Shown: positions 261 through 62,573 of the stretch, piece after piece | Position numbering within the stretch: position 1 is the first letter of the stretch | How the letters are laid out: every line of letters begins with the position of its first letter | Virus record (IMG/VR): IMGVR_UViG_3300045609_000049 | Direction: 5' to 3' (one strand) | Source of the DNA: an uncultured virus (IMG/VR IMGVR_UViG_3300045609_000049) | Taxonomy: Duplodnaviria > Heunggongvirae > Uroviricota > Caudoviricetes | Length of the DNA stretch: 64,000 bases | Program-made: the position numbers and the translations under genes | Notes under the pieces: model-generated | Seen by the model: only the letters and a program-made list of their open reading frames with translations | Database searches by the model: none | Told to the model about the DNA's origin: nothing

Positions 261-1491
261 GTGAAAAATACAATGGCACAACAACAACAAGAAGCAAAAT
301 CTGTAAATGATGGTATTGCCAATTCCCATGACGACGTGCAAGTCTTAAAGGGTATACAGCCGAAACATCAAATCATGTATAAGTTTTTTAAGATATGTAG
401 ATTTTTGGCGATTTTTGGATTCGTGTTTGTAGTATTGGCAATAGCTGCAGCTATATTTGCTCCAAAGACTCAGAATGAATTTATTATGAGCATTACACAG
501 GCTAAAGCTTACAGATTATACTTTTGTATGGGTCTAGCTGGACTTTCTGCATCTATCTTATTCTTAGGAATTGTCGCTAAGTTATTATTCCTTAGAAAAG
601 CACCCTTTGATGATTGGGTATATGAAATTGCAGAAAAGCGTTTAGGCACATCAATTATATTCTATGATAGTCGATACATTTATATCAATTATGATAGATC
701 TGGTAAGGAAGTTGATAAGAAAGAGTTTGTTACTGAAATGTCAGATAAGTCTATCAACTACTCTTACTATTATATAAAGACATTTATTGATCAAGGTGTC
801 ATTATGGTTGAGTGTAAAAAGAGACAACCTATTCCTAATAAGGCATCATTTTCACCTAACGACGATAAGTTCTGGAATATCATTCCTATGGGACTTACCA
901 TCAATGGAAATACGCAAAAAATTTCGCCGGTAGGATGGTACCTGAACGATCAGAATAAGAATGATGAATTGTATGAAACAGTTCCATCTACATCAATACT
1001 GATTAACACCATATAGTCAGCGTATACAGTGATGTGTGCGAAAAATAATTACTTGAATTGCTGGAACAGTATCAAATAATGATACGAACCTAAAGACTTT
1101 TAAGCTACAACGTAAAGATGAAATACACTTAAGCGTGAATGCAGAGAAATCAGAAAAAATTAAAAGTATAGCCTATGGTCAAATCCTAAGGGCTAATTAG
1201 ATCCTATGGACTAATTAAAGAATGGAGAATCAGCAGCTAAGCCTCGAATAGAGGAAAGTTCAACGACTATTCCATCGGCCATGGCAAATAGTGGCAATAG
1301 AAGTAGGGCTTCAAATGAAGTGGGTGAGAATCCCTTAAATCGAAGTGGGTAGGTTCTCAAATGAGAATAAGATATAGTCTATTCCTATATGAAAGTATAG
1401 GTAGAATACACAATTCTAATAAAGTTGTGGTGGTACAGGATGCTTGGAGAAAGATACTCCGATCCTTATGTATGATACTTTAATTCACTAA
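261..1491 (+). CDS. FtsK/SpoIIIE-like ATPase 1, N-half (exons 261-1003 and 1425-1491): membrane domain, first half of Walker A, then a 16-aa split-intein N-piece
   Basis: Two hydrophobic helices; spliced product reads VPSTSILI-CGGTG-CLEKDTPILMYDTLIH*; SILICGGTG matches the FtsK HLLIAGxTG pattern; start may be ATG 273. Confidence 0.8.
1004..1424 (+). mobile_element. Group I intron, no ORF
   Basis: P1 ctgat/gtcag with U-G pair; core motifs aattgctggaa, aatcagcagc, ttcaacgact, gatatagtc; terminal G1424; removal restores the frame. Confidence 0.85.
1441..1488 (+). other. Split intein N-piece (block A only, 16 aa)
   Basis: CLEKDTPILMYD directly after GGTG, then stop. Confidence 0.8.
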
Positions 1492-8430: not shown

Positions 8431-8925
8431 ATGTATAAGATAGTTTTAGATGATAATAGTTTTATTATTGCTGATGAAAATTACAAACTAACACTTTTTA
8501 GATTTGGTTTCAAAAAAGTTGTCACAATAAAAAACTATTTAATTACAAATAGGTACAGCAAACATCATCTTGTTGACTGTATTGATGGAAAACGAATGAA
8601 AAGAAATTTCACAATTAAGGAAACTTCAAATGAAGAAAATTATCCTATTGGTTCTAGAATTAAGCTTGCGCAAGATATTCAATTTGGCGATTTAGTACTT
8701 GGTAAAGATGGAGAACCAAGGCGAGTAAAAGAACTTCATACTGGAGAAGATGAGATGTTTGAAATCACAATTGATGGTGTATCTTATCGAGTAAATGGTG
8801 GACATATTCTTGCATTAGTTGACAAAGATACTGGTGAACATCTTGAAATGCCTGTAAATGTTTACATGCACATGAATGATGAGTTTAGATCTCATTATGC
8901 AATGGAGAAAGTTATGGAGGATTAA
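8431..8925 (+). CDS. Stand-alone intein (Hint) middle piece
   Basis: From residue 74: GSRIKLAQDIQFGDLVLGKDGEPRRVKELHTGEDEMFEI...YRVNGGHILAL (block B His); lacks block A and blocks F/G; alternative start 8596. Confidence 0.78.
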   Translation: MYKIVLDDNSFIIADENYKLTLFRFGFKKVVTIKNYLITNRYSKHHLVDCIDGKRMKRNFTIKETSNEENYPIGSRIKLAQDIQFGDLVLGKDGEPRRVKELHTGEDEMFEITIDGVSYRVNGGHILALVDKDTGEHLEMPVNVYMHMNDEFRSHYAMEKVMED

Positions 8926-13255: not shown

Positions 13256-13501
13256 GTTTACTCTACACGTGTAGAGGGTTATTCTCAGGCTACTGGTTGT
13301 GCGGATATTTCGGTTGTGTTTTTCTCTACGTATGTAGAGGCTAGTCTAAAGTTTTTAAAATTTTTTGATAAAAAGTCAGTTAAAAGTCCCAAGTATTGAT
13401 TTTATTAACTGTTTTCTCTACGTATGTAGAGGTTTTTCTAATGAGAGTAATCGACGCAGCTATAGATGTATGTTTTCTCTACGTATGTAGAGGTTTATTC
13501 T
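13256..13501 (+). CRISPR. Mini CRISPR locus A: two repeat-spacer-repeat units separated by a 63-nt AT-rich segment
   Basis: Repeats at 13256, 13318, 13411, 13472 (consensus GTTTTCTCTACGTATGTAGAGGTTATTCY); 32-nt spacers 13286-13317 and 13440-13471. Confidence 0.85.
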
Positions 13502-15071: not shown

Positions 15072-15396
15072 TCGCCAGAGTAAAACCGGTCGACAGACTT
15101 TCCAAAAGCAGGGGGAGTCTGAGACCGGTTTTTTATTGCTTTAGTTTTAGGATGAAAAGCAGGAATCCTCAGTAATTCAATTGCCGTAGATGAAGGCATG
15201 TAACCGTAGATTACATCACTTGTTCTTTGCGTGCGATATGCTATGCGTACGAAAAAAGATACTAAACGCAGAGGTCGAAAAATATCTGAAAGAACTTGTG
15301 TTTCTCTATGCATGCAGAGGTTATTCCTTTTTAAGTTGCATAGAAAAACTATTTACAATGTCCCTATTTTGTGTTATATTATTTATAGATTGTTAG

Positions 15397-17556: not shown

Positions 17557-18912
17557 ATGAATAGCAATCAGTTATTTAGACAAGTAGCTAGACGTACACT
17601 AACTACGAAATTTGTCCCTCGAGGCAGATTTCAAAAAGGACGATTACGACGTCTATTAAAACAAGCAAAAAAGAATAGTTCATTTTATAGGGAGTTATAT
17701 AAAGATATTGATCTTAGTCGGATAACTCCCTATAATATTGCAGAATTACCTGCAGTGACTAAGTCTCAACTTATTGAAAATTATGGTGATTGGGTATGTG
17801 ATACAGATATTCATAAAGAAGATGTTATTGAGTATGCATCAAATGTTCAAAATATTGGAAGATTATATCTAGACAAATACTATATAACATCAACATCAGG
17901 TTCTACTGGAGAAAAACTAAAAGTTATCAATGAACAGAACGACTTCATAGAAATGTTAGCAATGGGTGCAATAGATACATGGCCTAAACTATCATACGCT
18001 ATAGACGTTGCTAAAAGTCATCGACCAGTTGTGTATATTGCACCTACTGATGGATTTTACGCATCTGTTCTTGTAGCTAGAACTTACTTAAATTTGTCAG
18101 ATAATTTTAACTCAGAAATTATTGATTTTAGAGTTCCTACTGATGAATTAGTACTTAGACTTAACCAAATCAATCCTATACTGATTGGAGGATATGTTAG
18201 TACATTTTTGATTCTTGCAGATGAAGCTAAAGCTGGACGACTAAATATAAATGTAAAGTATATGGTACCAATCGGCACAGCATATTCTGAAGAAGACAGA
18301 CAAAGAGTTAAGGAAGCTTTTGATTGTGAAACATTTACATCCTATAGTTGTACAGAAGCTGGAGAGATTGGATGCGAATGTGTATACGGACATTTTCATC
18401 TCGCTAAAGGTGTAATCGTTGAACCTGTAGATGATAATCTAAATGTTATTGAAGATGGAAAAGAATCTAGTGGCGTTCTAATCACAAATTTGTGGAATAG
18501 ATCAATGCCATTTATTAGATATTTGCTCAATGATAGATGTATTGTGCATAATGAACAATGCAAATGTGGACGTAAAACAAAATGGATAGAAGTCATTGGA
18601 AGAGAAGTAATTCGAGTTTACTTCTTAAATGATGACAACAAAGTAATTCAGATGACTGACTTTATGTTTGAAGCAATTCTAAACGATATTTGTAGTGGTA
18701 AAGCAGATCATCAAATGATTATAGATGGTAATACAATTGAAATGAGATTTAATATAAAGAATGATTTTATAAAGTTTAGTCAGTTCAAATGTATTAGAAG
18801 CAGAATACAAGAATTGGCAAATGTAAATGATCTCAGTTTAGATGTAGTACTTAGTGATGAATTACCTATTGTAGATAATTCAGGTAAAACAAAGAGAATA
18901 ATCATAAGATAG
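17557..18912 (+). CDS. Phenylacetate-CoA ligase/CapK-like adenylate-forming enzyme
   Basis: STSGSTG, YSCTEAG, MPFIRYLLND, CKCGR, SGKTK. Confidence 0.82.
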   Translation: MNSNQLFRQVARRTLTTKFVPRGRFQKGRLRRLLKQAKKNSSFYRELYKDIDLSRITPYNIAELPAVTKSQLIENYGDWVCDTDIHKEDVIEYASNVQNIGRLYLDKYYITSTSGSTGEKLKVINEQNDFIEMLAMGAIDTWPKLSYAIDVAKSHRPVVYIAPTDGFYASVLVARTYLNLSDNFNSEIIDFRVPTDELVLRLNQINPILIGGYVSTFLILADEAKAGRLNINVKYMVPIGTAYSEEDRQRVKEAFDCETFTSYSCTEAGEIGCECVYGHFHLAKGVIVEPVDDNLNVIEDGKESSGVLITNLWNRSMPFIRYLLNDRCIVHNEQCKCGRKTKWIEVIGREVIRVYFLNDDNKVIQMTDFMFEAILNDICSGKADHQMIIDGNTIEMRFNIKNDFIKFSQFKCIRSRIQELANVNDLSLDVVLSDELPIVDNSGKTKRIIIR

Positions 18913-19062
18913 TTTACTCTACGTATGTAGAGGTTTTTCCATTGAAGCATCAATCAAGTCTGCAGAGGCAGCGTTTTCTCTACGTATGTAGAGGTTTTTC
19001 CGTCATAGAGTTGATGTCAATTTCTACAAACTTGTCTTCTCTACGTATGTAGAGGTTATTCC
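18912..19062 (+). CRISPR. Mini CRISPR array B (3 repeats, 2 spacers)
   Basis: 29-nt repeats at 18912, 18973, 19034; 32-nt spacers; 61-nt period. Confidence 0.9.
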
Positions 19063-21879: not shown

Positions 21880-22002
21880 ATGAGTACAGTAAAACAAGTA
21901 GATTTTACAGTCAAGCCTTTAAAGAAGACTGATCAATACTTTGGATTCTCTTTAGAAGATGATCCGATGCACATCATGCCTGACGGAACTATCTTCCATA
22001 AT
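21880..22002 (+). other. Split intein C-piece (41 aa, blocks F and G)
   Basis: DQYFGFSLEDD...DGTIFHN followed by Ser; own RBS and start. Confidence 0.85.
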
Positions 22003-25000
22003 TCTGGCAAGAGTGTTTGTGAGCAGAGCATAGTTGGCCACGTATCTAGATATTCAGATAGATTTCAGTTGGTAGGAGTCGACTGTAAGCGTATTTAATT
22101 CAATGCGCATTTCTATTGAACTCTATTGCTCAGAGGTGTGATTTAGATTTTATTCTAAATTGCTAACGGTATCAGCAAAATAAGCATAGTTGGTTGGGTG
22201 TTACAACAGTACCAACTTTAATAATGACGAAACAGCTGACTAAGAGAATCTAAGCCTAGAAATAGGTCAGTTAAAGACAATACCGTGCTAAGTCCGAAAG
22301 GAAAAGTGTATCGACTATCTCCGTGAGGAGAGTACATCCGAGAATGAGCTACGGGTGGAAGTGGTAGAAGTATAATTTTAAAGGAGTTTTTAATAATGAT
22401 TATTTGTAAAATTTGTGGAAAGGAATGTTCTGATAGAGGAATAGGCGCACATGTAAAAATCAGCATAGTATGATGCCTGTCCAATATTATGATACATATT
22501 ATGGTAAACATAAATGTCCAGTGTGTGGAAAAGATACAAATTTCAGAAGTATTCATCAAGGATATTTAGAATTTTGTAGCATTAAATGTGCAGATTTAGA
22601 ACGAAGTATATTTAAAACTAGAAATCCACAGAAAGACCCACAAATAAAGCAAAAAACACAGGAAACATGCATTAAAAGATATGGAGTATCTAATCCATAT
22701 CAAATAGAACATGTAAAAACTAAATGTATTGCAAATAATCATACAAAAGATGCTTTAGATAAACGTACAAAATCATTATATAAAAATCTTGAAAACTTTT
22801 GTAAAGCCAATAATTGTATTACTATGGGAGAAGCATTAAAAATAAATCCATGCATAGGTTGGTGGAGTGAAGTAGATTTTATTATCTATAAGAAATGGCG
22901 TAAATGTATATCTAAAGACGATTTAGACATTATTAAAAACTATAAGCCAAATAATAACCGAAGTAAAAATGAGATCAAATTATATAATCTTATTTGCGAT
23001 AATTTTAATGGTATAGTTGAACATTCAACTAGATCTGTAATAAATCCATTAGAATTAGACATCTACATTCCAGATCTTAAATTAGCAATTGAATATAATG
23101 GTTGTTATTATCATTCTATAGAAGCTGGAACACTTAAAGATTATCATCTTGAAAAATCATTAAGATGTAGAGATTTAGGAATTAGACTTATTCATATCTA
23201 TGACTTTGAAAATTTTGATACTCAATGTAAGTTAGTGTTAAAATTACTTCAGGGTACAGATGAATTTTGTAAAATAGACTTCAATAAAAATAATCTTATA
23301 GAAGTCGTTCCTAAACCTGAATTAATTTTTAGTGATTTGAATCTTCATGTTTATGGCGCTGGAAAATTATACAAGATATAGTCAGTTTATTATGGAAACA
23401 TAATAAGATAACGGTAGAATTTAATTTACTTAGAGGCGTAGATTTTGCGCATCTTTATTGAACCTTATTACTCAAGGGTGTCTTAGAAATAAGGCTAACG
23501 GTAGAAGTTGAATAAGACTGCTATATGAAATGTTACAACAAGATATATAGCCATAGACCAAAGACGAAGTCGCTTCGTAAGAGAACCTACGGTCCAGAAA
23601 TGGATAGCAGGCAATACCGTGCTAAGCTTATACTGTTTAAAGGTGCAATAAAACTTGATATAATAGTATTAGAAAGTGTATCGACTATTCCCGAGAGAGG
23701 GAAGTACAGCCGAGGATGAGTTACGGTTGGAAGTAGTAGAGGTATATAAAATGATTAAATGTAAAATATGTAATGCAGAATATAATACATATAAACAATT
23801 ATCTTGGCATGTCAAATATCATAATCTGACAAATCAACAATATTATGATATGTATATGAAACAGCCTAATGAGGGTTATTGTTTAATGTGTAGAAAAGTT
23901 ACTGCATTTATAAGTCTAAATTTAGGGTATAGACAACATTGTAATAAACAATGTACTAAGTTAGACAAACAAGTTCAAGTAAAAAGATTAAACACTAATA
24001 TTGATAGATATGGATATGCAACATCATTAAGTTCTAAAGAAACTCAAGATAAAATAAAACAAACATTTATTAGAAAATATGGAGTATCAAATCCTTATGC
24101 TGCAGAATCAGTAAAGGAAAAGATAAAACAAAATAATTTAGAACAGTACGGAGTAGAAAATCCACAACAACGTGATGATGTTAAACAGAAAACGGCAACA
24201 ACTAATTTAGAATTATATGGAAATACATGTGTAATGCAAAGTGAATCTGTAAAAAGTAAAGTAAGACAAACTATGCAAGAACGATATGGTTCTGATAACA
24301 TATTTGGTTCTGAATATGGAAAACAGAAAATTAAAGAAACTAACTTAGAACGTTATGGAGTTGAGAATCCTCAGCAGAATCATGATATTCACGTAAAAAC
24401 ACTGAAACATTATAAGTATAATTCATTAAATTTTGACAGTTCTTGGGAATTAGCAGTTTATATTTATTGTATAGACCATAATATATCAATTATTAGAGAA
24501 TCAGTACGATTCAAATATATCAATTCAAATGGTGTTGAAAGCTATTATTTTCCAGATTTTGAAATTGAAGGTCATATAGTTGAAATTAAAGGTGGACAAT
24601 TTTTAGACAAGAACAATAAGTTAAAAGATAAAGCAAAACAAAAATGTATAGATGAACATAATGTTGAATTATGGATTAAGTCAGATGTTCAGAAATATAT
24701 TCAGTATTGTGAAGAAAAGTTTGGTAGTACTAAATGGTATAATCAATTTAGATAATCATTTTATATATAAGATATAGTCAGTTCATTATTGAAAAATAGT
24801 GAGTAAATGAAAAGGTGTAAAAGGAGTAGCTTTAGATGTACCTACGGCCGCAGACGCCGTGGCAAATTTCCAACAGATTATGATGGAGAGATTTAAGTTC
24901 ATGGAGCAGATGCAGGTTGATTTTATAAAATTATTGGCTTGCGCGTAGAGTGATCTGCGTGAGAAATTAACTATTTAATTGCTGGGATAATATTCTTTTA

Positions 25001-28000
25001 ATGAATATGACTTTAACAACAATCAAGCTATAACATAATTGGAAACAATAAGTGTGAATTGCAACGAAAGTAGAAAAAATTGATTGTTTGACCTATGGTT
25101 AAATCCTAAGGGTTAGTAGAATGAGAAATCAGCAGCTAAGTACCCTAACGTTATACTGAGATCATCAGTTAGCTAAGTCGAGGGTAAAAGTTCAACGACT
25201 AGAGCTCACAGAGGCTACATCATAAAAATAAGAGTGGAAATCTCGAATATTTGTAGCAATACTCGTAGGGCCTATTATGGTGGGTGAGAATCCCTTAAAT
25301 CGAAAAGGTAGTCCCTTATTTATAAGGTGAAGATATAGTCTAAGGAGAGATCAGAATGAATGAAACAATATGTAGAATATGTAATCAACCAATTTCAAAT
25401 AGGTTGTTTAAGAAACATTTAGAACAACATAATATTAGTCAACAACCATATTATGATAGGTACTTTGGAAAAGGTGTATGTGAAGTATGTGGTAAACCTA
25501 CCAGCTTTAAGGATATTTTCAAAGGTTATAATAATTATTGTTCTAGATCATGCTTAAATAAATCTACTATACATTCTGATTCAGTTAAAACTACTAAAAC
25601 TATTAGGTATGGAACTCCTACATACAATAATCCAAGTAAGACAAGTGAATCTTTATTAAATAGAACAGATGATGAAAAACAAAAATCTATTCTTAAAAGA
25701 AAATCTACTTGTCAAGAAAAGTATGGAGATGAAACATATAATAATAGTAAAAAGTATAAAGAAACTTGTCTTAAGGTATATGGAACAGTGATTCCATTTG
25801 CTGCAGAATCAGTAAAGCAGAAAATTTCAGACAAATATTATGCTAAATCTGCTGAAGAAAAGAAAGCGATTTATACAAAGAGACAAGCAACATTTGATAG
25901 TAAAACTGAAGAAGAAATGAAAATTATTGGTCAGAAACATAGAGATGCATATATGTTGAAGTCAGATAAAGAAAAAGCTGAGATTAAACATAAAAGCTAT
26001 CTGACTAAAAAGAAGAATCATTCATTTAAGGTATCAAAGACTGAAGATTTATGTTATGTACAACTTTTAAGTATTTATCCAGATGCTAAACATGGATATA
26101 AGTCAACTAAATATCCTTTTGTATGTGATTTATACATTCCATCTAAAGATATTTATATTGAGCTTAACTTTCATTGGACACATGGATTACATCCATACAA
26201 TAAGAAAAATGATAGTAAAAAGTTAGCAGAGTGGATAGAAAAATCTAAAACATCTAAGTATTTTGAAAATGCTATTTATACTTGGACAGTTAGAGATACA
26301 CACAAGTTAAAAGTAGCTAAACATAATAAAGTACAATTATTTGTATTTTATACTAAATCTGAGTTTGATACTTGGTTATCTATGCAATAATGTTTATAAA
26401 ATCAAAGACAAGGAAGTAAATTATTTTACCACAATGGGCAAAACTGTTCAGTTTGATGAAATCTTTGAGCTTATGGTAGACCTTGACGAAAATGATAGAA
26501 ACTATAGTAAAATGAAGGCCATCTATCCTGAAGGACGTCAGCCTATTATTACGACTATTCAAAAGATTTATGATGGTATGATGGAAGGTAAGTGGGATGG
26601 TAGAAATCCTCAGTTACCTGAAGTAAAAGGTTACAACTCATATATCGACAAGAATAGTATTAGAATGACGAAGGGCATTTATACTCCTAAAGTATTACTC
26701 TTCCTTGCAGATGAGTTGAATGAGTTGATGACATCAGACGATTATAAGTCAGTTGATATTGTTAAACAAGCACTGGGATCTATAGCTAGACTCGGTAGAG
26801 CTTATTTGTTGTAGGCTCGGTATATAAAATTATAAGATATAAGGTAAATAAAATGTTAAATGAATTGCAATGTAAGATTTGTGGATATAAAGCATCTACA
26901 AAACAAGGTTTTAATAGTCATTTATCACATAGACATCATATAAAATCAAAAGATTATTATGATAATTATCTTAAACAAGATGGTGAAGGAATATGTCATT
27001 GTGGTAATCCAACAAAATTTAGAAATATGTGGTATGGCTATAACAGACATTGTTGTACTAGATGTATTCCATTAGATCCAGACGTACAAAATAAAATGAA
27101 AATTACTTGTCAAGAAAAATATGGCACAGATTATGCTTGGCAAGCAGAACAAACAAAAGCTAAGATTAAACAAACTACTAGAAATCATTATGGAGTAGAT
27201 TGTTATTTACACACAGATGCATGTAGAAAAATTACATCTGAAGTTACTAGTTCTGATAAAGTTAAAGATAAGATTAAACAATCTAATTTAAAACGTTATG
27301 GAGTAGAATGTTCATTTCAAGCCTCAGTAGTTAAAGATAAGATTAAGTGTACTAAATTAGATAGATATGGCCATGAAACTTATAATAACTTAGATAAAGC
27401 AAAAGAAACTAGTAGAGCTAAATATGGAGTAGATAATCCTGCTCAATCTATAAAAGTACAAAATAAAATGAAAGCTACATGTTTGGAACGTTATGGTGTT
27501 GATAATATCTGGAAAGATAGAGATTCTAGATTAAAAGCTAAAAAGAAGTCACAAAAATCTATGTGTAAACATGGAAATAGATCTTCCTTAGAAGCTTTAT
27601 TAGAGCAATATTTTATTGATAATCATATTAAATATGAACCAGAATATAATAAAGATATTCGTTATCCATATTTTTGTGATTTTTATTTACCAGATTTTGA
27701 TTTATTTATTGAAATAAATGGATATTACACACACTGTAATCATTGGTTTGATTCAAATAATTCAGAAGATGTTAATAAGTTAAACGAACTTATTGAAAAG
27801 TCTAAAGTTCATTCAATGTACAAAACTTGTATAAGAGTTTGGACTCAATCTGATGTAGAGAAACGAAATTGTGCCAAAAATAATAAACTTAATTATGTTG
27901 TATTATGGTCTAAACAAGATATTCTTGATTGGATTAATTCTGGATTTGAAATTAGACATGATTATTAAATTTATCTTATAATAATATATATAAAAATTAA

Positions 28001-31000
28001 CCTATTGAATTGCTGGAACAGTACATTAGTACGTACCTAAAGTTCTTTCAGCTACAACGTAGAGATGAAATATGCTCAAGCGTGATATGCGGAGAAATCA
28101 GAAAAAATGAAAGAAATGGCCTATGGTTAAATCCTAAGGGTTATAAGAATGGAAAATCAGCAGCTAAGCCTCGAATAGAGGAAAGTTCAGAGACTATCGA
28201 AAGCATAGTATAAGAGAAATACTTATATGAAGAAGTGAGTAGAGTAGCTTTATAAGCGAAGTGGTAGGCATTTCATATTGGCTAATGCAATATGGGATGA
28301 AGATATAGTCCAACTTTTATATGAAAGTATAAAATATAGTGGCAGCAGTACATCTTGCTCTTGCTTAACTAAAAATACGGAGTTTTATTAATGAAATGTT
28401 TAATTTGTGAACATGAAAGTCCAATATATTTGTAGAAATTAACGGTTATTGGATGTATAATACACATTGGTTTGATGAAAATTCTATAGAAGATTTAAAC
28501 GCATTAAAAGAGTGGAAAAAGAAAGCTAAAACTTCTACAAGAATGCAATCAGCTATAAATATTTGGACAAAAATTGATATAGAAAAACGTAATTGTGCCA
28601 AAAGTAATAAGTTAAATTACGTAGTTCTATGGACAATAGAAGATATTCAGAATTGGATAGATTCTAATTTCAAAATTAGACATGATTATTAAAAAACATA
28701 ATATTTAGACAGGCACTATATACAAGTAATTGTGTGTAGTTATCCCATTGAATTGCTGGAAACTCTTTAGAGCTTCTTAAACTACAGCATAGTACCTTAA
28801 ATGGTACAGGTGCGAATGTTTGAAAATTAAGAAGATTAGACAATCAGCAGCTAAGGCCGAAAGGTAAAGTTCAACGACTATCGAAAGTATAATTATAGAG
28901 AAATACTATAATGAATAAATGAGTAGAGTAGCAGAAATGCGAAGTGGTGGGCATCTTATAAAGGTTAATACAATATAAGATGAAGATATAGTCTAATAGT
29001 ACAATTGTACTAGTGTCAGAGAGCAAGTGGTTCTACTATTTCAACAGACTTGAAGAACAATATTCAGATGAGTGTTCTTTTAGGTGGATTTGATGATGGT
29101 GCATCACAGTTAATGTTTGAAAAGGATTAACAATGAATAGTCCCTATGTACAGAAATGTGCATAGCAAACCAATTTAATTGCTGGAAATTTAATTCCTAG
29201 AGAATTACGTAGAAATACGCTAAAGCCTTCTCGCCACAGCATAAGCATGAAATATAGTTAAGTGCGACGGTAGTGAAAACAGAAAGAAGTAAGAAGGATT
29301 GTATAAGGTTAAATCCTAAGTACAACAAAATGGATAACCAGCAGCCAAGTTCCGAATAGGAAAAGGTTCAACGACTATCGAAAGCTACAGGTCTTGAAAC
29401 ACAGATGAAAATAAGATGACTATTTAATTATATAGTCATACGAAGTGAGTAGAGTAGTGCCGAGTGGTGAGCATCTATATGAGATTAGTATAGAGTAAGT
29501 CTATTAAAACGAAATGGTTGGTATTATTTTAGATTAAAAATATAATAGAAAGGAGACTTACATGAAATGTTTAGAATGTGGACAAGATATTAAAAATAAT
29601 ATTGCATTAGGTTTACATGTTAAAAAACATAATATGACTAGTAAAGAGTATTATGATAAATATATGCGAAAATCTAATGAAGGCATTTGTCCTACTTGTA
29701 AGAAAGAAACTCCTTGGCAATCGTTTGATAGAGGGTATCTTAAACATTGTTCATATAAATGTACTCAAAATGATCCTAAAGTAATTAAAAAACGTGAAGA
29801 TCATTTTATGAGTAAATATGGTGTTAAGAATCCATATCAAGCAGAAGAAGTAAAACAAAAAATAAAAGAAAGTAATTTAGCTAATTATAGTGTTGAATAT
29901 AATTTACAGAGAAAAGAAACTATTCAACAGGCAAAACAAACTAAATTAGAACGTTATGGAGATCAAAATTATAATAATACAACAAAAGCTAAGACAACTT
30001 GTTTAGATAAATATGGAGTAGATTCATATTCAAAAACTGATAAATTTAAGTCTATTATTAGAGAACAAGTAGATTTTTATGCAATTGCTAAAAAAGGATT
30101 AGTAACACATAATAGTAAAGTAGATAAACAATGTAAGTTGGGATATATAACTATACAAGATGCTTTTATTAAGTACGGTCAAAGCTGGTATAAAAATAAG
30201 ATAGTTCCAATTTTATATAAATATCATACTGGATTTATTTCTCTAGCTGATGAACAGATTATAAAATTTTATTATGAAAATAATAATGGTCATAGTAGTC
30301 AAGAAGAAAATAAGCTATTAGAATTATTGCATAAGTATTATTCTGGAACTATAATTCATGGTGAACATAAAATAATTGCACCTTTAGAATTAGACTGTTA
30401 TATTCCTGAGTTAAACATAGCTATAGAATATAATGGTATTTATTGGCATTCTGCTAAATTTAAGAATAATGACTATCATTATAATAAATCTATGTCTTGT
30501 TTTAATAAAGGCATTAGACTTATTCACTTTTATGAATTTGAAGACTGGACATATATAGAACAGTTTATTAAAGATTTATTTAATAACACTGAGCAAATTA
30601 CACATAATTTTGATAAATTTTCTCCATTACAATTTGATTATTCTACAATTGAATTTTCAGGTCCGCAATTGTTAGAATGTAATATATTTGGATCTGGAAC
30701 ATTTAATCTAAAATAATAATGATATAGTCTACTCTCATGTGAAAGCATGAGGCGAAAGCATAATAGAGTAACGAACTATTATAAATGTAAGGATTTCTCA
30801 GTTGGCTAAACCTCAGATCAAGGGAAGAGGTTTTATCGGATTAACAATCTAGTCCGGGCGTACAGTGATGTGCGTAAAAATTATCCTATTTAATTGCTGG
30901 AAAACTGATTCCAAGAGAATCACGCAGAAATGTGCCTAAGAGCTCTTCAAACTACAGCATAATACCTGTAAAATGGTATAAGTGTGACAGTTACGAAAGT

Positions 31001-32647
31001 AGAAAAAATTGAAGAGATTGTATATGGTTAAATCCTAAGTACAATAAAATGGGTAATCTTAGCAGCGAAGACCGAAAGGTAACGTTCAACGACTATCGAA
31101 AGCTACAGGTCTTGAAACACAGATGAAAATAAGGTCATAATGACACGAAGTGAGTAGAGTAGTGCCAAGTGGTTAGCGTCTATATGAGATTAGTATAGAG
31201 TAAGTCTATTAAAACGAAATGGTAGGTATCATAACAATTTTCTGGTAAAAATAAAATGGAAGGCGAATAATAATTGAAATGTTTAATATTCAGCCTGACT
31301 TAATACTCAAGTGTTTTCTCTACGTGTGTAGAGGTTATTCCCTAAAGCTCACAATCCACAATGTAAGCATGAAGTTTTCTCTACATATGTAGAGGTTATT
31401 CTAATTTTGGTCCTATACCAGAAGGTCCAGAAATTATTTGTACTAAACCATATAGTATATATGGTGCAGGAAAATTGTTATGATAATGATATAGTCTCCT
31501 CTCATATGAAAGTATGAGGCGAAGGCATAATAGACTAACGAACTATTATAAAGATAAGGCAGGAAATGAAATTATCGAAACTCAAACTTATTACACACAA
31601 CCAGAGAATTAACAATCCAGTGGTTCTCTATAAACCTATTTAATTGCTGGAACAGTATCAAATAATGATACGGACCTAAAGCTCACAATCCACAACGTAA
31701 GGATGAAATAAGCCTAAGCGTGACGGGCGCGAAAGCAGAAAAAAGAACGTTATGTTCAAGTGAGATGGCCTAAGGACGATTTGGTGAGTCCTAAGGGTTG
31801 TAAGAATGGGAAATCAGCAGCCAAGCCTCGAATAGAGGACGGTTCAACGACTATCAAAAGCTACAGGCCTTGTAATACAGGATGAAAATAAGATGACTAT
31901 TATAATAGTTATACGAAGTGAGTAGAGTAGCGCCAGAGTGGTTAGTATCTAAGTGAGATTAGCTTAGAGTAAATCTATTAAAGCGAAATGGTAGGTGCTA
32001 TAGAAATATAGTGAAGATATAGTCTAGATTCTTATGAAAGTAAGGAAGGTTATGTATTTAACCAAAAAACGGACTGGGAGTTTGATGAAGACCAGAAATT
32101 GTCTTATAATAACCCTGTATTTATTGAGTTATTAAAGAGACGCGGTAAAAGCTTTGACGAGCTAAATACTGGTTGGGTACCTCAGCATAAGATTGGTGAG
32201 GAAGCAGAAGAACCAGATGAAGAAATTGAAGAAAAAGAGGATGAGTTTGAAGAAGATGAAGATGTAAATGAAGAAGATCTTTTTACATCTGCACCTAAAA
32301 TGGAAGCTCCACCTAAGAAAGAAGAAGATTCTAATGAAGTAAGCTTTAAGTTCGGTAGAAAATCTAAACCAGAAGAACCTGTTGCACCAGCATCAGTAGA
32401 ATCACCAGATTTAGGATTAAGTGGACTAGAAGCCATGTTTGGACCATCTACTTCAACTATTCCCGAACCACCTACACCATCTCAACCTAATTTTGGACAA
32501 CCGTCTAATAGAGATCGAATTGGTGCGGCTTTGAATGAAGTTCAAGGTGGAAAACCTAAAATTAAGTTAAATATTGACAAGACTTCTGCAGATCAACCGA
32601 TGAAGCCTACAATTAAACTCAATATTAAGCCTAAGGATCAACAGTAA
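21880..32647 (+). CDS. FtsK/SpoIIIE-like ATPase 1, C-half with N-terminal intein C-piece; exons 21880-22092, 23414-23439, 24810-24917, 26385-26802, 28342-28365, 29014-29127, 30793-30841, 31560-31609, 32072-32647
   Basis: Exons sum to 1578 nt (525 aa plus stop): IFHN-SGKS, VDCKRVEF, Walker B LLFLADELNELM, RLGRAAAVHLALACQRAS, KGRG, acidic/Pro-rich tail. Confidence 0.85.
22093..23413 (+). mobile_element. Group I intron with endonuclease ORF
   Basis: P1 gcgt/gcgc; gctaacggt...ataccgtgctaag, tcgacta, gatatagtc; terminal G. Confidence 0.82.
22396..23381 (+). pseudogene. Intron-encoded zinc-finger/PD-(D/E)XK endonuclease with 1-nt frameshift near 22455
   Basis: MIICKICGK start with RBS is out of frame with the 22470-23381 ORF (ELDIYIPDLKLAIEYNG); one extra A in gtaaaaatcag restores HVKNQH. 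Confidence 0.7.
23440..24809 (+). mobile_element. Group I intron with endonuclease ORF
   Basis: P1 gcgt/gcgc; same core family as the 22093 intron; terminal G; frame restored. Confidence 0.82.
23751..24755 (+). CDS. Intron-encoded endonuclease (zinc finger, YGVxNP repeats, PD-(D/E)XK)
   Basis: FDSSWE...YFPDF...VEIKG. Confidence 0.8.
   Translation: MIKCKICNAEYNTYKQLSWHVKYHNLTNQQYYDMYMKQPNEGYCLMCRKVTAFISLNLGYRQHCNKQCTKLDKQVQVKRLNTNIDRYGYATSLSSKETQDKIKQTFIRKYGVSNPYAAESVKEKIKQNNLEQYGVENPQQRDDVKQKTATTNLELYGNTCVMQSESVKSKVRQTMQERYGSDNIFGSEYGKQKIKETNLERYGVENPQQNHDIHVKTLKHYKYNSLNFDSSWELAVYIYCIDHNISIIRESVRFKYINSNGVESYYFPDFEIEGHIVEIKGGQFLDKNNKLKDKAKQKCIDEHNVELWIKSDVQKYIQYCEEKFGSTKWYNQFR
24918..26384 (+). 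mobile_element. Group I intron with endonuclease ORF after P7
   Basis: P1 gcaggt/gcttgc; P10 ttttataaaattattg pairs with exon caataatgtttataaaa; standard core motifs. Confidence 0.82.
25356..26390 (+). CDS. Intron-encoded endonuclease
   Basis: Zinc fingers; YPFVCDLYIP...IELNFHWTHG. Confidence 0.8.
   Translation: MNETICRICNQPISNRLFKKHLEQHNISQQPYYDRYFGKGVCEVCGKPTSFKDIFKGYNNYCSRSCLNKSTIHSDSVKTTKTIRYGTPTYNNPSKTSESLLNRTDDEKQKSILKRKSTCQEKYGDETYNNSKKYKETCLKVYGTVIPFAAESVKQKISDKYYAKSAEEKKAIYTKRQATFDSKTEEEMKIIGQKHRDAYMLKSDKEKAEIKHKSYLTKKKNHSFKVSKTEDLCYVQLLSIYPDAKHGYKSTKYPFVCDLYIPSKDIYIELNFHWTHGLHPYNKKNDSKKLAEWIEKSKTSKYFENAIYTWTVRDTHKLKVAKHNKVQLFVFYTKSEFDTWLSMQ
26803..28341 (+). mobile_element. Group I intron with endonuclease ORF ahead of the core
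   Basis: P1 gagct/ggctc; P10 tatttgttgt pairs with gcagcagta; core at about 28000-28320. Confidence 0.82.
26853..27968 (+). CDS. Intron-encoded endonuclease
   Basis: Zinc fingers, YGV repeats, YPYFCDFYLP...IEINGYYTH. Confidence 0.8.
   Translation: MLNELQCKICGYKASTKQGFNSHLSHRHHIKSKDYYDNYLKQDGEGICHCGNPTKFRNMWYGYNRHCCTRCIPLDPDVQNKMKITCQEKYGTDYAWQAEQTKAKIKQTTRNHYGVDCYLHTDACRKITSEVTSSDKVKDKIKQSNLKRYGVECSFQASVVKDKIKCTKLDRYGHETYNNLDKAKETSRAKYGVDNPAQSIKVQNKMKATCLERYGVDNIWKDRDSRLKAKKKSQKSMCKHGNRSSLEALLEQYFIDNHIKYEPEYNKDIRYPYFCDFYLPDFDLFIEINGYYTHCNHWFDSNNSEDVNKLNELIEKSKVHSMYKTCIRVWTQSDVEKRNCAKNNKLNYVVLWSKQDILDWINSGFEIRHDY
28366..29013 (+). mobile_element. Group I intron with deleted endonuclease remnant in the P1 loop
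   Basis: Guide gacaggca near 28708; core motifs; terminal G29013; frame restored (LALA-CQR). Confidence 0.8.
28391..28692 (+). pseudogene. Internally deleted endonuclease
   Basis: MKCLICEH start joined out of frame to FVEINGYW...KIRHDY, which is paralogous to the 26853 ORF C-terminus. Confidence 0.75.
29128..30792 (+). mobile_element. Group I intron with endonuclease ORF
   Basis: P1 ggat/gtcc; core motifs; terminal G. Confidence 0.8.
29562..30716 (+). CDS. Intron-encoded endonuclease
   Basis: MKCLECG zinc finger; ELDCYIPELNIAIEYNGIYWH. Confidence 0.82.
   Translation: MKCLECGQDIKNNIALGLHVKKHNMTSKEYYDKYMRKSNEGICPTCKKETPWQSFDRGYLKHCSYKCTQNDPKVIKKREDHFMSKYGVKNPYQAEEVKQKIKESNLANYSVEYNLQRKETIQQAKQTKLERYGDQNYNNTTKAKTTCLDKYGVDSYSKTDKFKSIIREQVDFYAIAKKGLVTHNSKVDKQCKLGYITIQDAFIKYGQSWYKNKIVPILYKYHTGFISLADEQIIKFYYENNNGHSSQEENKLLELLHKYYSGTIIHGEHKIIAPLELDCYIPELNIAIEYNGIYWHSAKFKNNDYHYNKSMSCFNKGIRLIHFYEFEDWTYIEQFIKDLFNNTEQITHNFDKFSPLQFDYSTIEFSGPQLLECNIFGSGTFNLK
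30842..31559 (+). mobile_element. Group I intron carrying a mini CRISPR array in place of its endonuclease
   Basis: P1 cggat/gtccg; core motifs; terminal G; frame restored (FIG-SGNE). Confidence 0.8.
31313..31402 (+). CRISPR. Mini CRISPR array C (2 repeats, 1 spacer) inside an intron
   Basis: Repeats 31313-31341 and 31374-31402; 32-nt spacer. Confidence 0.85.
31610..32071 (+). mobile_element. Group I intron, no ORF
   Basis: P1 gagaat/gttctc; P10 ccagt/actgg; core motifs; terminal G. Confidence 0.85.
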
Positions 32648-33941: not shown

Positions 33942-34032
33942 GTTTACTCTACGTATGTAGAGGTTATTCCTTACAATTTGTCAAGCACAACCTATTAAAC
34001 TTGTTTTTCTCTACGCATGTAGAGGTTATTCC
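33942..34032 (+). CRISPR. Mini CRISPR array D (2 repeats, 1 spacer)
   Basis: Repeats at 33942 and 34003; spacer 33971-34002; promoter motif upstream and hairpin downstream. Confidence 0.85.
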
Positions 34033-39204: not shown

Positions 39205-39585
39205 ATGAAGAAAACTATTGCAGATGTAAAGGTAGGAGATTTAGTTCTTGGTACCGATGGTAAATTCCATAAAGTTATTGAAAAGACTACAGCTAAACTC
39301 TCCTACCACATGTATGAAATAGAATTTAGCAATGGTAAAGTCAAATGTTCTAATGTACATCAATGGAATGTATTTATCAAAAACAAGATGTATATGATTG
39401 ACGCTGAAGGTATTTATCAAGAATTTGATTGGTACAAGGGTCGACATGTTGGAACTAACGATGGACCAACGATTGTTAATATTAGAAAAATTGAACCTGA
39501 AATTGTGCAGTGTATAACTACTGACGCACCTGACCATCAGTTTGCTATTTATACTGAAGGTGGCGCTGTTTGTAACGATAACTAA
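39205..39585 (+). CDS. Stand-alone intein middle piece (class-3-like; blocks B and F, no block A, no HN end)
   Basis: TIADVKVGDLVLGTDG, MYEIEFSNG, HQW, IVQCITTDAPDHQF. Confidence 0.8.
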   Translation: MKKTIADVKVGDLVLGTDGKFHKVIEKTTAKLSYHMYEIEFSNGKVKCSNVHQWNVFIKNKMYMIDAEGIYQEFDWYKGRHVGTNDGPTIVNIRKIEPEIVQCITTDAPDHQFAIYTEGGAVCNDN

Positions 39586-43058: not shown

Positions 43059-43904
43059 ATGGAGACAGTTAAAAGAGGACTCATTTCGCACAACAGCGTT
43101 ACTTTGAGGAATGTCATATTCCATTGTATTTAGGCGAAAGCCTAAAATAAATCGAACATAATAATAAAATATCGGTCGCGTTGGTAGACATAAAGCAAAC
43201 GGAGTGCGTTTTTAAAGGATGAAGCTCCCGCGTATGGTGACATGCGTGAAAAATTCCCTATTGAATTGCTGGAACAGTATTCTTATAATGAATACGAACC
43301 TAATGCCAAATTAGCTACAACGTAAGAGAAATACTAAGCGTGATATGCAGCGAAAGCAGAAAAAATAATTTGGATGACCTATGGTTAAATCCTAAGGGTT
43401 AGTAGAATGGAAAATCAGCCGCCAAGTCTTGGTAACAGAGACAGGTTCAACGACTATCGAAAGCTATAGGACCTGAAATACGGTATGAAAATAAGGCATT
43501 TGCACGAAGTAAGTAGAGTAGAGCCAATATGGTTAGCATTTAGATGAGATTAGTCTAATATAAGTCTATTAAATCGAAGTGGTAGGGTTCTCTAATTAGA
43601 GAATATGATATAGTCTAATAATGTTTATCCTTTTAAGGGTATGAATGGTGTAGTAGCAGTTGCAAACTCGGTTCAAGAAGCAGCTGAGGTTTTGAGAATT
43701 GGTAGAGCCGTAATGTATTCTCGTAACAAGAAGCTTCAACAAATTGGATTAAATGATATGGCTTCCTATCAGCCGACTTTGTGGACTGGTAAGATTTGGA
43801 TTACTGGTCGTGAGTTTGATAAGGATGAGATGATCAAAGTTCGTGTTGCTGGCGAGGAAAAAGAAATGACAGCACTCGAAATTTACGAGTATTTGTACAA
43901 CTAA
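43059..43904 (+). CDS. FtsK-like ATPase 2, middle fragment with a 12-aa intein C-piece; segments 43059-43130, 43154-43205, 43624-43904
   Basis: METVKRGLISHN-SVTLRNVIFHCI/EHNNKISVALVDIKQTE/FYPFKGMNGVVAVA aligns without gaps to ATPase 1 SVCEQSIVGHV...VDCKRVEFNLLRGVKGVKGVA. Confidence 0.7.
43206..43623 (+). mobile_element. Group I intron, no ORF
   Basis: P1 ggagt/gctcc; P10 taaaggatgaa pairs with tttatcctttt; core motifs; terminal G. Confidence 0.85.
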
Positions 43905-43909
43905 TATAT

Positions 43910-43968
43910 TGTGGGTAGCGTTAGTCTAGCTAACTAACGAGATAATGTTGCTTACTCAACAAGCCACA
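43910..43968 (+). ncRNA. Candidate structured RNA, copy 2
   Basis: Same unpaired sequences as 42044-42103 with different but paired stems. Confidence 0.55.
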
Positions 43969-43998
43969 TTATATTTTTTCTTAGTAGGGAGAAATATT

Positions 43999-45972
43999 AT
44001 GGTTAAATGTTTAGAATGTGGTCGAGAATTTAATAGTAATAATGGTTTATCTCGACATATAGGCGTTCATATGAATCAAGAAGAATATTTTGATAAATAC
44101 TTACGAACATCCGAACAAGAAGGAAAATGTGTTATATGTGGAAAACCTACTAGATTTAGAAATTTTGTATATTCTAATTGCTGTAGCCAGTCCTGTAGAA
44201 ATACGTGGATAAATCAAAATAGGTCTGAGGAAGAAAGACAAGAATTGTCTAAAAAGATACGTAATGCCCATAGAACTGAAGACGTTTTATCTAAGACTAA
44301 ACAAACTAATATAGAAAGATATGGAGTTCTTTATACAACTCAAAATTCAGATGTTCAAGAGAAACGCAGACAAACTTGTCAAGAAAAATATGGTACAGAC
44401 TATTCATTTCAAGCTGAATGTGTAAAAGAAAAGATTCAGCAGTCTATACACGAACATTATGGTGAGAACGGTCTTGGAGCAGCAGAAGTTAGACATAAAA
44501 CTATTGCTACATGCCAAGAACGATATGGCACCAATAATGGCGGTGCTTCACAACAAGCACAAGAGAAAATTAAAAAAACTACTTTAGAACATTATGGGGT
44601 AGAATCGTCTTTTCAAGCCAATGAAGTAAAAGATAAAATTAAGAAAACTTGTCAAGAAAAATATAGTGTAGATTATGCTAGTCAAGCAGAAGTAGTTAAA
44701 ACAAAAATTGTTAAAACAACATTAGATAGATATGGAGTTAGATGTCAATATCAACGTTCAGACTTGCGAGCAAAACTATCCGATCCAGGCGTTATTGCTA
44801 AAAAATATGAAACTAAACGTAAGAATGGAACGTTTAACACCTCTAAACCAGAAGACAGATGCTATGAATTACTTCAATCAATCTTTCCAAATGCTAAAAG
44901 ACCATATAAGTCTGAACAATATCCATATCTATGTGATTTTTATGTACCAGAACTAGATTTATACATAGAGTGTCATTTTTTCTGGACACATGGTGGACAC
45001 TTTTTCGATAAAAATAATCCTGAAGATCTGGCTATTGTAGAAGAATGGAAATCTAAACACGCAAATTTTTATGATAATGCTATTCGAAATTGGGCTGTTA
45101 GAGACTTAGAAAAGCTTGAATGTGCTCATAGAAATAATCTTAAATATTTAGTATGTTGGTCAGAAGAAGAGTTTATGTCTATATTTGATAGAGACTTTTC
45201 TGAACATGATGAGCTTTCAGATAAAATTAAGAATGTAACTCAAGTGACTAAACTTGCTAATTGGAATGAGTACTTTAAGCGTGAAATTGAAATGCTTGAT
45301 AATCCATTAGTATTAGGTGAGTTATTTATCAATAGATATAAGTATTTAGGCAAGTTACCACATCAACTGTCTAATCTTGCCTTATTGAATGGACTTAGTA
45401 TTTCTGGTAAACTTCGAAAGTACAGTACATTTGATAATACTGGCATGATTCAGTTTATTGAAAAATATAAACCTTCTACTATATTTGACCCTTGTGCCGG
45501 TTGGGGCGAAAGACTTCTAACTTGTCATGTCAATGGAATTAAATATATAGGCCACGATATAAATCAAACTGTTGTAGAAGGTCAAAATGAACTAATTAAA
45601 AAATACAATATAGACGCAAAAGTCACTTGTATGGATTCTATTATGGATATGAGTCATTATGATTGTTTATTCACTTGTCCACCTTATTGGAATACAGAGG
45701 TTTATACTAGTATAGGCGTAGAAAATCTTGAGTATGACAAGTTTTTGCAGTGGTGGAAAAGTATTATTGAAAACTCATCTAGTAATTTTGTAGCCTATCA
45801 AATCAATCAAAAATATAAAGACGACATGAACCAACAAATTTTAGATTTAGGATATAGATTTACAGAAGAAATCATTTTGCCACAAAAGAGCTCTCATTTC
45901 ACTAGAAAAGCTGGAAATCAAAAACGAGAATTTGAGAGTATTCAAGTGTTTAGTAAACTAACTCAAGCTTAA
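43999..45972 (+). CDS. Zinc-finger/PD-(D/E)XK endonuclease fused to an amino-DNA methyltransferase-like domain
   Basis: YPYLCDFYVP...IECHFFWTHG, then FDPCAGWG (motif I) and FTCPPYW (motif IV). Confidence 0.78.
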   Translation: MVKCLECGREFNSNNGLSRHIGVHMNQEEYFDKYLRTSEQEGKCVICGKPTRFRNFVYSNCCSQSCRNTWINQNRSEEERQELSKKIRNAHRTEDVLSKTKQTNIERYGVLYTTQNSDVQEKRRQTCQEKYGTDYSFQAECVKEKIQQSIHEHYGENGLGAAEVRHKTIATCQERYGTNNGGASQQAQEKIKKTTLEHYGVESSFQANEVKDKIKKTCQEKYSVDYASQAEVVKTKIVKTTLDRYGVRCQYQRSDLRAKLSDPGVIAKKYETKRKNGTFNTSKPEDRCYELLQSIFPNAKRPYKSEQYPYLCDFYVPELDLYIECHFFWTHGGHFFDKNNPEDLAIVEEWKSKHANFYDNAIRNWAVRDLEKLECAHRNNLKYLVCWSEEEFMSIFDRDFSEHDELSDKIKNVTQVTKLANWNEYFKREIEMLDNPLVLGELFINRYKYLGKLPHQLSNLALLNGLSISGKLRKYSTFDNTGMIQFIEKYKPSTIFDPCAGWGERLLTCHVNGIKYIGHDINQTVVEGQNELIKKYNIDAKVTCMDSIMDMSHYDCLFTCPPYWNTEVYTSIGVENLEYDKFLQWWKSIIENSSSNFVAYQINQKYKDDMNQQILDLGYRFTEEIILPQKSSHFTRKAGNQKREFESIQVFSKLTQA

Positions 45973-47004: not shown

Positions 47005-47053
47005 GGAGAATTATTATGGTAGTTCAAACTCAATGTGGTTTATTGTAATAATG

Positions 47054-47074
47054 TACGTATGTAGAGGTTATTCT
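47054..47074 (+). repeat. Isolated partial CRISPR repeat
   Basis: tacgtatgtagaggttattct equals the 3' 21 nt of the repeat. Confidence 0.65.
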
Positions 47075-61866: not shown

Positions 61867-62112
61867 TTTTAGGAGGCGATAATCGTGTTTGATTATAATA
61901 AAGTAGATTGGCACAAGAATGGTGGTAAAGCTAAGCTTGACTTCTTTTCTTGTGACTTTAACGTAGAAGATAATTGCAATATTGTAACTTTCCATATTGT
62001 AGCATTTAATTGCAATGGTACAGATCTAAATTGCGCCGCAGACGATATTTTTAAAGCAAACGAAGTAGAAATCCACTAAGTCTTTAGCTTAGTGGATGAA
62101 TACGAGGTAATT

Positions 62113-62511
62113 ATGTCAAATTATAAAAGTAAAAATCATAGTAAATTTACTCTAAAATATCATATTATATTTGTTTGTAAATATCGTAAGAAATTATTAA
62201 TTAAATATGGAGAAGAAATAAAACAAATTATAAAAGATATTTCATATAAATATGATTTTGATATTTTAGAAATTGAAGTAGATAAAGACCATATTCATAT
62301 TTTAGTTGATAGTGAACCTAAATTATCTCCGTTAATGATAGTGAGAGTTCTTAAGCAACAATCAACTATAATTCTGTATGGCAGGCATCATACAGAATTA
62401 AAAAGACACTTCTGGAAAGAAAATACCTTTTGGACGGACGGATATTTTTGTTCAACAATAGGCGAAGTTAGTAGTAAAACTTTAGAAAAATATATTCAAA
62501 ATCAAGGATAA
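62113..62511 (+). CDS. tnpA: IS200/IS605 Y1 transposase
   Basis: YHIIFVCKYR, DHIH (HUH), FWTDGY, YIQNQ. Confidence 0.95.
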   Translation: MSNYKSKNHSKFTLKYHIIFVCKYRKKLLIKYGEEIKQIIKDISYKYDFDILEIEVDKDHIHILVDSEPKLSPLMIVRVLKQQSTIILYGRHHTELKRHFWKENTFWTDGYFCSTIGEVSSKTLEKYIQNQG

Positions 62512-62573
62512 ATACTTGACAAAAATTAATTAAAATGTGTTATAATAAATATAGAAAGAGAGGTGAATTAGAA

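Follow-up and report, generated by a model that had tools for sequence, protein, structure and literature searches.

Introduction

CRISPR (short palindromic repeats, clustered and regularly interspaced) mini-arrays borne by viruses are reportedly the subject of work by Medvedeva et al. in 2019 (PMC6858448). According to the available text of Iranzo et al. 2020 (PMC7099407), mini-arrays in phages are as a rule directed at close relatives and are similar to sequence of the carrier itself, while the accessible parts of a further paper (PMC10120712) describe mini-arrays in other systems that match imperfectly and repress transcription. Mobile group I introns are a second instrument of phage conflict, the available part of PMC11620839 describing interference competition by a mobile intron endonuclease, gp210 of phage PhiPA3. 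In IStrons, IS607/IS605 elements combine a group I intron with a TnpB guide RNA (PMC10690162, available text). Here we analyse 64,000 nucleotides (nt) of DNA from an uncultured virus (IMG/VR record IMGVR_UViG_3300045609_000049), a stretch that we call the window and that is a piece of a jumbo phage genome. Within it, intron 7 of an FtsK-like ATPase gene is an intact group I intron that carries a CRISPR mini-array in the place of the homing endonuclease gene, with a spacer matching the next intron, intron 8. This arrangement is real and unusual; our literature search, outside of which lay most subscription papers and supplements, found no paper, at least among the titles listed, on a CRISPR array in a group I intron, and the word 'intron' is absent from the available text of both mini-array papers (PMC7099407 and PMC10120712).

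How does this locus compare with the systems already described? Like virus-borne mini-arrays (as the available text of PMC7099407 presents them), the intron-7 unit has one spacer between two repeats, a near-match in its own genome and no cas genes beside it, and a relative would be its target; unlike them, it lies inside an intron of the self-splicing type, replaces an endonuclease gene and would target the next intron, and its repeats seem to fit a system of the phage clade and no known host. It resembles mobile group I introns and gp210, so far as the latter is covered in the available part of PMC11620839, in being an intron in a conserved phage gene with a putative weapon against a co-infecting relative, but the weapon would be an RNA guide whose nuclease comes in trans, and what it matches is something other than the empty insertion site. 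With IStrons (PMC10690162, in part) it would share the use of one RNA as both group I intron and guide source, so that splicing and guide production may compete; it differs in having no transposase or TnpB, in carrying a CRISPR unit for a class 1 effector and in the absence of any overlap with a splice site. As in collaborative homing and co-conversion by free-standing endonucleases, in the portion available of PMC10448857, a nearby cut could carry the element along, although specificity here would come from a CRISPR RNA (crRNA) and the processive Cas3 and not from a protein endonuclease. Intron 7 is neither a homing intron, having no open reading frame (ORF) and no match to the empty site, nor an IStron; its array would act as viral mini-arrays do and, possibly, as a homing endonuclease does.

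Results

An array in the P8 loop of a group I intron

Positions 21880-32647 of the window hold the 3' part of the ATPase gene, interrupted by eight group I intron cores; the features mapped here lie on the + strand. Pfam FtsK_SpoIIIE matches the gene at E 8e-5, below its cut-off, and the gene is FtsK-like in this sense. Comparison by tblastn with the intronless L006 protein places one exon (ISQLAKPQIKGRGFIG) at 30793..30841, before intron 7, and, with junction alignment, a 50-nt exon at 31560..31609 separating introns 7 and 8, the exons thus stopping at 30841 and restarting at 31560. Intron 7 itself (30842..31559) is missing from all five of the closest IMG/VR relatives (G001-G005, with genomes of 250-467 kb), in each of which the exons on either side join without a gap and keep the frame. 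The Rfam model Intron_gpI covers 30852-31518 at 25 bits (E 0.005), under its gathering score of 50. Helices P1, P2, P3, P4, P6, P7, P8 (17 bp) and P9 all pair, and every pair in the core (P3, P4, P6, P7, P8 and the R/S elements) is standard or G-U; the boundaries are marked on the 5' side by the U-G that P1 has at the splice site and on the 3' side by a terminal G (31559), with a P10 of 3 bp. Judged from these sequence features, intron 7 is a genuine group I intron, and it is predicted to splice.

The 5' arm of P8 (31227..31243) pairs over 17 bp with 31469-31485 and closes the loop that bears the array. In the sister intron 6 (29128..30792; identity to intron 7 of 79% in the 5' core and 90% at the 3' end), the same loop holds an intact endonuclease ORF of 384 amino acids (29562-30716), whose best match in the PDB is 3r3p, 'Mobile intron protein', at E 0.02; we take this entry to be I-Bth0305I, with a Vsr-like fold. 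Several introns of the ATPase gene encode DUF7487 proteins with a C-terminal nuclease-like domain. Within 30842-31559 there is no ORF of at least 50 amino acids, only remnants of 5 and 26 codons, and the intact endonuclease ORF by which a mobile intron is recognized is lacking from intron 7.

Read from its 5' side, the P8 loop of intron 7 contains a ribosome-binding site and MKCLI, 24 further nt, repeat 1, the spacer, repeat 2 and a 26-codon C-terminus. The start of the lost gene (31258..31303) comprises GGAAGG at 31258, TTG at 31274, the codons for MKCLI and a stop after 9 codons, and 13 of 15 nt agree with the ORF starts at window position 28392 and in L094; the stretch is short, and its identification as a gene remnant leans on position. 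The C-terminus (31403..31483) sets in where repeat 2 ends and has 26 codons (31403-31480) and a stop, its last codons doubling as the 3' arm of P8. It aligns to the ORF at 22470 with a score of 36, equalled by 5 of 5000 shuffles, and to that ORF's subfamily with scores up to 51, against 24 for the intron-6 ORF. Because of the difference between 36 and 24, the lost gene appears to have belonged to the 22470 subfamily rather than to be a copy of the intron-6 ORF, among whose 44 homologs the highest score against the remnant is 38. A search for an intact parent returned four unrelated repetitive proteins. The array occupies the endonuclease gene's place in an intact group I intron, as the original prediction had proposed: the pairing helices and the contiguous exons in all five relatives bear this out, the MKCLI start that it named is recovered with its 13 matching nucleotides, and the C-terminal remnant is indeed present and 22470-like, although longer, at 26 codons, than had been supposed.

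A contig of sequencing run X1 is identical to 31194-31671 at depth 38. Since X1 may be the source sample, this contig speaks solely against an assembly artefact, which we reject. In intron 5 (28392-28692) the endonuclease gene has decayed and, set beside the intact ORFs of L026 and L027, lacks a large internal stretch, and a contig of run X9 joins over intron 4 (26797-28340), from which it follows that strains of the phage vary in intron content.

The repeat-spacer-repeat unit

The unit consists of repeat 1 (31313..31341), a 32-nt spacer (31342..31373) and repeat 2 (31374..31402), the repeats being identified by repeat search and folding as type I-E-like, with a hairpin and an 8-nt handle. Its geometry (29-nt hairpin repeats, 32-nt spacer, 61-nt period) is that of the type I-E locus L070. 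Each repeat has a 7-bp hairpin with a z-score of about -3.5. Type I-E processing leaves a crRNA made of the 8-nt handle, the spacer and a 21-nt hairpin, and by this rule a crRNA of 61 nt (8 + 32 + 21) is expected here. A terminator-like match at 31378 was rejected as repeat 2 itself.

The repeat recurs eleven more times on the window's + strand, with at most 8 mismatches per copy and mostly within four dispersed arrays, and a single match on the - strand (7 mismatches) is probably due to chance. Among 27 intron cores compared, 10 from the window and 17 from fetched loci, the repeat is present in intron 7 only. The four other mini-arrays with this repeat are found at 13256-13500, 18912-19062 and 33942-34032, and no targets were found for them; the spacer of the array at 13411 is also contained in run X9, from a separate study. 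Solitary degenerate repeats at 15299-15327 and 47046-47074 could be decoy repeats or array remnants. A close relative (L071:8027-10028; about 90% nucleotide identity, shared genes) has intergenic mini-arrays of its own with other spacers.

The spacer matches intron 8

Intron 8 (31610..32071) is a group I intron without an ORF, recognized by Rfam at 43 bits and by P1, P10 and its junction. The self protospacer within it (31676..31707) is identical to the spacer at 30 of 32 positions, the two mismatches falling at positions 21 and 27 of the spacer and leaving its 20-nt seed side perfect, and a match of this kind has a chance expectation of 8e-11 in the window. It lies 334 nt away on the same strand as the spacer, which excludes antisense pairing of the crRNA with intron-8 RNA. 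The last base of repeat 1 equals the base that precedes the target. Among the 27 intron cores intron 8 alone has a close match to the spacer, and the runners-up have 9 and 12 mismatches; the region is variable, with at least 9 differences in other members of the family, so the spacer derives from the present intron-8 allele or a very close one.

Of the five relatives, none has intron 7 and three have an intron at the intron-8 site, so the state of intron 8 present and intron 7 absent exists in three. The spacer does not match the empty intron-7 junction, its protospacer lying 116 nt downstream. Since the guide misses this junction, homing by the guide could only be indirect, through a cut in intron 8 and co-conversion.

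The protospacer-adjacent motif (PAM) position of the self match (31673..31675) reads GAC. We infer AAY as the preferred PAM. In the type I-E system of Vibrio cholerae, a distant one that serves here by analogy, AAY is the optimal PAM and GAC a weak one, according to the available text of PMC12767519. The triplet that follows a common TACG motif is AAC in the window intron near 1056 and in L161, TAC in three siblings and GAC in intron 8 only; those window repeats that are listed have C or T as their final base. In addition, an Asn (AAY) codon precedes the point corresponding to the repeat-2 junction in 9 of 9 homologous C-termini, in a register aligned by eye. The comparable repeat-gene junction in G002 does not conform to AAY, since its nearest intact homologs have Gly there; this counts against the motif and disposes of the idea that every array-gene junction in the clade is an AAY PAM.

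Candidate effectors

Which Cascade could use such a guide? Across the 185,579 GTDB species genomes the exact repeat has no match, and a repeat-array search gave five matches, none an array of the window repeat. Repeat scans of viral contigs returned no locus, then one (G002), then seven, five of these being unrelated tandem repeats, and a metagenome scan returned two, namely a related phage and a GC-rich locus whose handle differs. The repeat family recurs in the related phages G002 and L071 and, more diverged, in G004. In the last of these, a 467-kb relative, a type I-E set (L026:253-7729) stands directly upstream of the same ATPase gene and comprises Cse1, a Cse2-sized ORF with no family match, Cas7, Cas5e, Cas6e and a Cas2-Cas3 fusion; a degenerate array separates cas6e from cas2-cas3, and G004 has several dispersed arrays besides. 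Most of these cas matches fall under curated cut-offs, while two Cas3 domain models pass. A shared repeat pattern has 11 forward matches in G004 and none in the control. The window repeat is identical to two G004 repeats at only 17-20 of 29 positions, with the hairpin and the 8-nt handle in common; with the L070 repeat it agrees at 21 of 29, the handle not being shared. L070:1-11100 is a complete I-E locus of cellular type; it has two long arrays, and the repeats in them vary among copies.

The Cas7 protein of G004 has 63 unnamed homologs at 48-98% identity, whereas its other seven matches, named cellular Cas7 proteins included, reach 22-26%. Two of the homologs lie on contigs that agree in length (532,570 and 425,807) with contigs bearing homologs of another gene of the clade, and these may well be identical large phage contigs, and a scan of viral contigs with a Cas7-alignment profile found G004 only. 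No cas1 was found in any of the five relatives, G004 included, and Cas7 and Cas3 of the G004 type are missing from four of the five. As far as sequence can indicate, a Cascade of the phage clade is the best candidate for the effector.

Genomic setting

Window DNA was detected in sequencing runs of bioreactor sludge. That the host belongs to the phylum Bacillota is a guess from gene content and from TnpB matches of 55-58% in plasmids of Bacillota. The ATPase gene is apparently scattered over the window (261-1430, 8431-8925, 21880-22098, 39205-39585 and 43220-43904). Its 5' part terminates in a group I intron, Hint (intein) pieces lie at 8431 and 39205, an intein-like C-terminus continues into SGKS at 21880, and the ORF at 43641 likewise follows an intron; this scatter suggests split inteins or trans-splicing. 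At 43945-45972 a DUF7487 endonuclease-like protein is joined to a C-terminal DNA methylase domain, and 62092-63665 is an IS200/IS605-type element with tnpA and tnpB.

Discussion

Our analysis leads us to favour, at a rough probability of 0.45, the reading that the guide of intron 7 is aimed at the intron-8 alleles of co-infecting relatives and could stand in for the lost endonuclease. One of the phage's dispersed type I-E mini-arrays occupies the loop that formerly held the endonuclease gene; it would be transcribed along with the ATPase gene, and the 61-nt crRNA would be cut by Cas6e out of either the precursor or the excised intron. Cascade and Cas3 of the phage clade, encoded beyond the window or by a co-infecting relative, would then attack relatives whose intron 8 bears an AAY PAM, while the phage's own intron 8, for all its close match, would be spared through the weak PAM GAC and the two mismatches. 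Degradation by Cas3 runs upstream of the PAM (PMC9427990, in the part available). For concreteness, consider a rival that has intron 8 and lacks intron 7: Cas3 would degrade the PAM side and cross the empty intron-7 site 113 nt off, the rival would be harmed, and repair from an array-carrying genome would copy over intron 7 together with the resistant intron 8. Repair would import intron 7 because the empty site lies on the side that Cas3 degrades. The intron may also have a selfish motive, since a rival's intron 8, whose site is only 50 nt off, could on homing co-convert the flank and thereby remove intron 7.

A number of observations weigh against this reading. Read and contig mapping covered 4 of the 23 listed runs, and no RNA reads over the intron-7 locus were found in the runs checked; X6, the RNA-labelled run, is flagged as probably DNA and consists of contigs only. 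None of the pieces listed for X6, X9 and X11 covers the array, which does not amount to evidence that those runs lack it. In equilibrium folding the two repeats pair with each other (probability at least 0.99) and form no local hairpins, although the other window arrays also fold repeat to repeat and local hairpins do appear under a limited pair span. The six Cas proteins of G004 have no match in the window (64 kb), in L071 or in L007, and arrays evidently persist without cas genes of their own, since G002 has a mini-array and no such Cas7 or Cas3. No perfect protospacer was found in viral contigs, in metagenome contigs or in the five relatives, and the 57 matches among GenBank phages are all weak and at chance level; moreover, the intron-8 alleles of G001, G002 and G005 differ from the spacer at 13-15 of 32 positions. 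For the spacers of the window, G002, L071 and G004, neither the five genomes nor the fetched loci offered a convincing target, and as no other spacer found a target the PAM can only be inferred. Nor is self-protection assured, because GAC is weakened but not dead in V. cholerae. That the empty site falls on the PAM side is, taken alone, a 50:50 coincidence. Finally, the intron-borne array is so far the only one of its kind: a survey of related introns, which the original prediction had suggested as a check, gave no other such swap among the 27 cores.

The stronger version, in which the intron has swapped its homing endonuclease for a guide and phage Cascade-Cas3 cuts the neighbouring intron of rivals to achieve RNA-guided homing into the empty site, we consider unlikely; it would be homing by a class 1 CRISPR system and a conflict of intron versus intron. 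The competition or homing foreseen in the original prediction has gained a concrete target in the adjacent intron 8, a match which that prediction had overlooked, as it had the repeat family's tie to the phage clade; homing of the classical kind is not supported, as the guide misses the empty junction.

Could the unit instead be a recombination scar, neutral or decaying, whose place in an intron is accidental? Here a free mini-array would have carried two same-strand spacers from one rival locus, the first derived from intron 8 and the second from the endonuclease gene of intron 7; by recombining through the latter, the array would have entered the intron and deleted most of the gene, and intron 8 would later have escaped by mutation. 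The gene remnant does start exactly where repeat 2 ends, and the Asn codon that precedes this junction in all nine homologs is just what an AAY PAM would leave, with AAY found at 6.5% of positions. Both repeats are, moreover, 1-2 positions off the window consensus, and the lack of any detected cas1 in the five relatives favours arrays that move by recombination. A second junction points the same way, repeat 2 of G002 adjoining a 125-nt, 95% identical 3' remnant of a gene intact in G001, with no intron there, but its Gly codon does not fit the AAY pattern. That the hairpins, the handles of both repeats and the 32-nt spacing are all intact speaks against decay, and on balance we regard a mere scar, the main rival reading, as somewhat doubtful, noting that a recombination origin and a present function are compatible. 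The G002 remnant belongs to a DUF1963 gene (L007:6711-6926 versus L006:6295-6419) and shows, for a second time, an array in the place of a gene's 5' part.

Two further possibilities keep the guide and change its partner or its use. With the same guide and target, the effector might be the host's type I-E Cascade and Cas3, which the original prediction had proposed. Phage mini-arrays usually come without cas genes and rely on those of the host (PMC7099407, available text), the cellular-type locus L070 has a related repeat (21 of 29), identity to the two G004 repeats is only 17-20 of 29, and G002 has an array and no Cas7. Yet no array of the window repeat was found in the GTDB species genomes, the metagenome scan gave just the related phage and the GC-rich locus with its different handle, the 8-nt handle is common to G004 and not to L070, and a relative, G004, encodes a type I-E set of its own. 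Absence of the repeat from hosts is weak evidence, since the host may be unsequenced; all the same, a borrowed host effector seems quite improbable to us and is not supported as the default. Alternatively, Cascade might bind the phage's own intron-8 DNA without cutting and act as a roadblock that damps transcription of the last ATPase exon. The sole match found is indeed the phage's own DNA with its perfect 20-nt seed side, and repression by imperfectly matching mini-arrays has a precedent in the available text of PMC10120712. Known regulatory guides are, however, short matches at promoters, whereas this is a match of 30 of 32 within an intron, where its length risks recruiting Cas3; a promoter scan found 5 against a shuffle mean of 5.0, no excess. 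Such self-regulation is in our view highly improbable.

What would the favoured reading mean, if a guide of intron 7 acts against intron 8 of co-infecting relatives? If the unit is functional, two weapons of phage-phage conflict, intron endonucleases and mini-arrays, are united in one element, and it would constitute a gene drive of natural origin based on class 1 CRISPR, in which the guide, its target and the empty site all fall within 400 nt. Even if it is only a scar, it still documents how such arrays enter genes. More generally, the locus draws attention to type I-E systems encoded by phages, a clade that has been little studied and that makes use of dispersed arrays.

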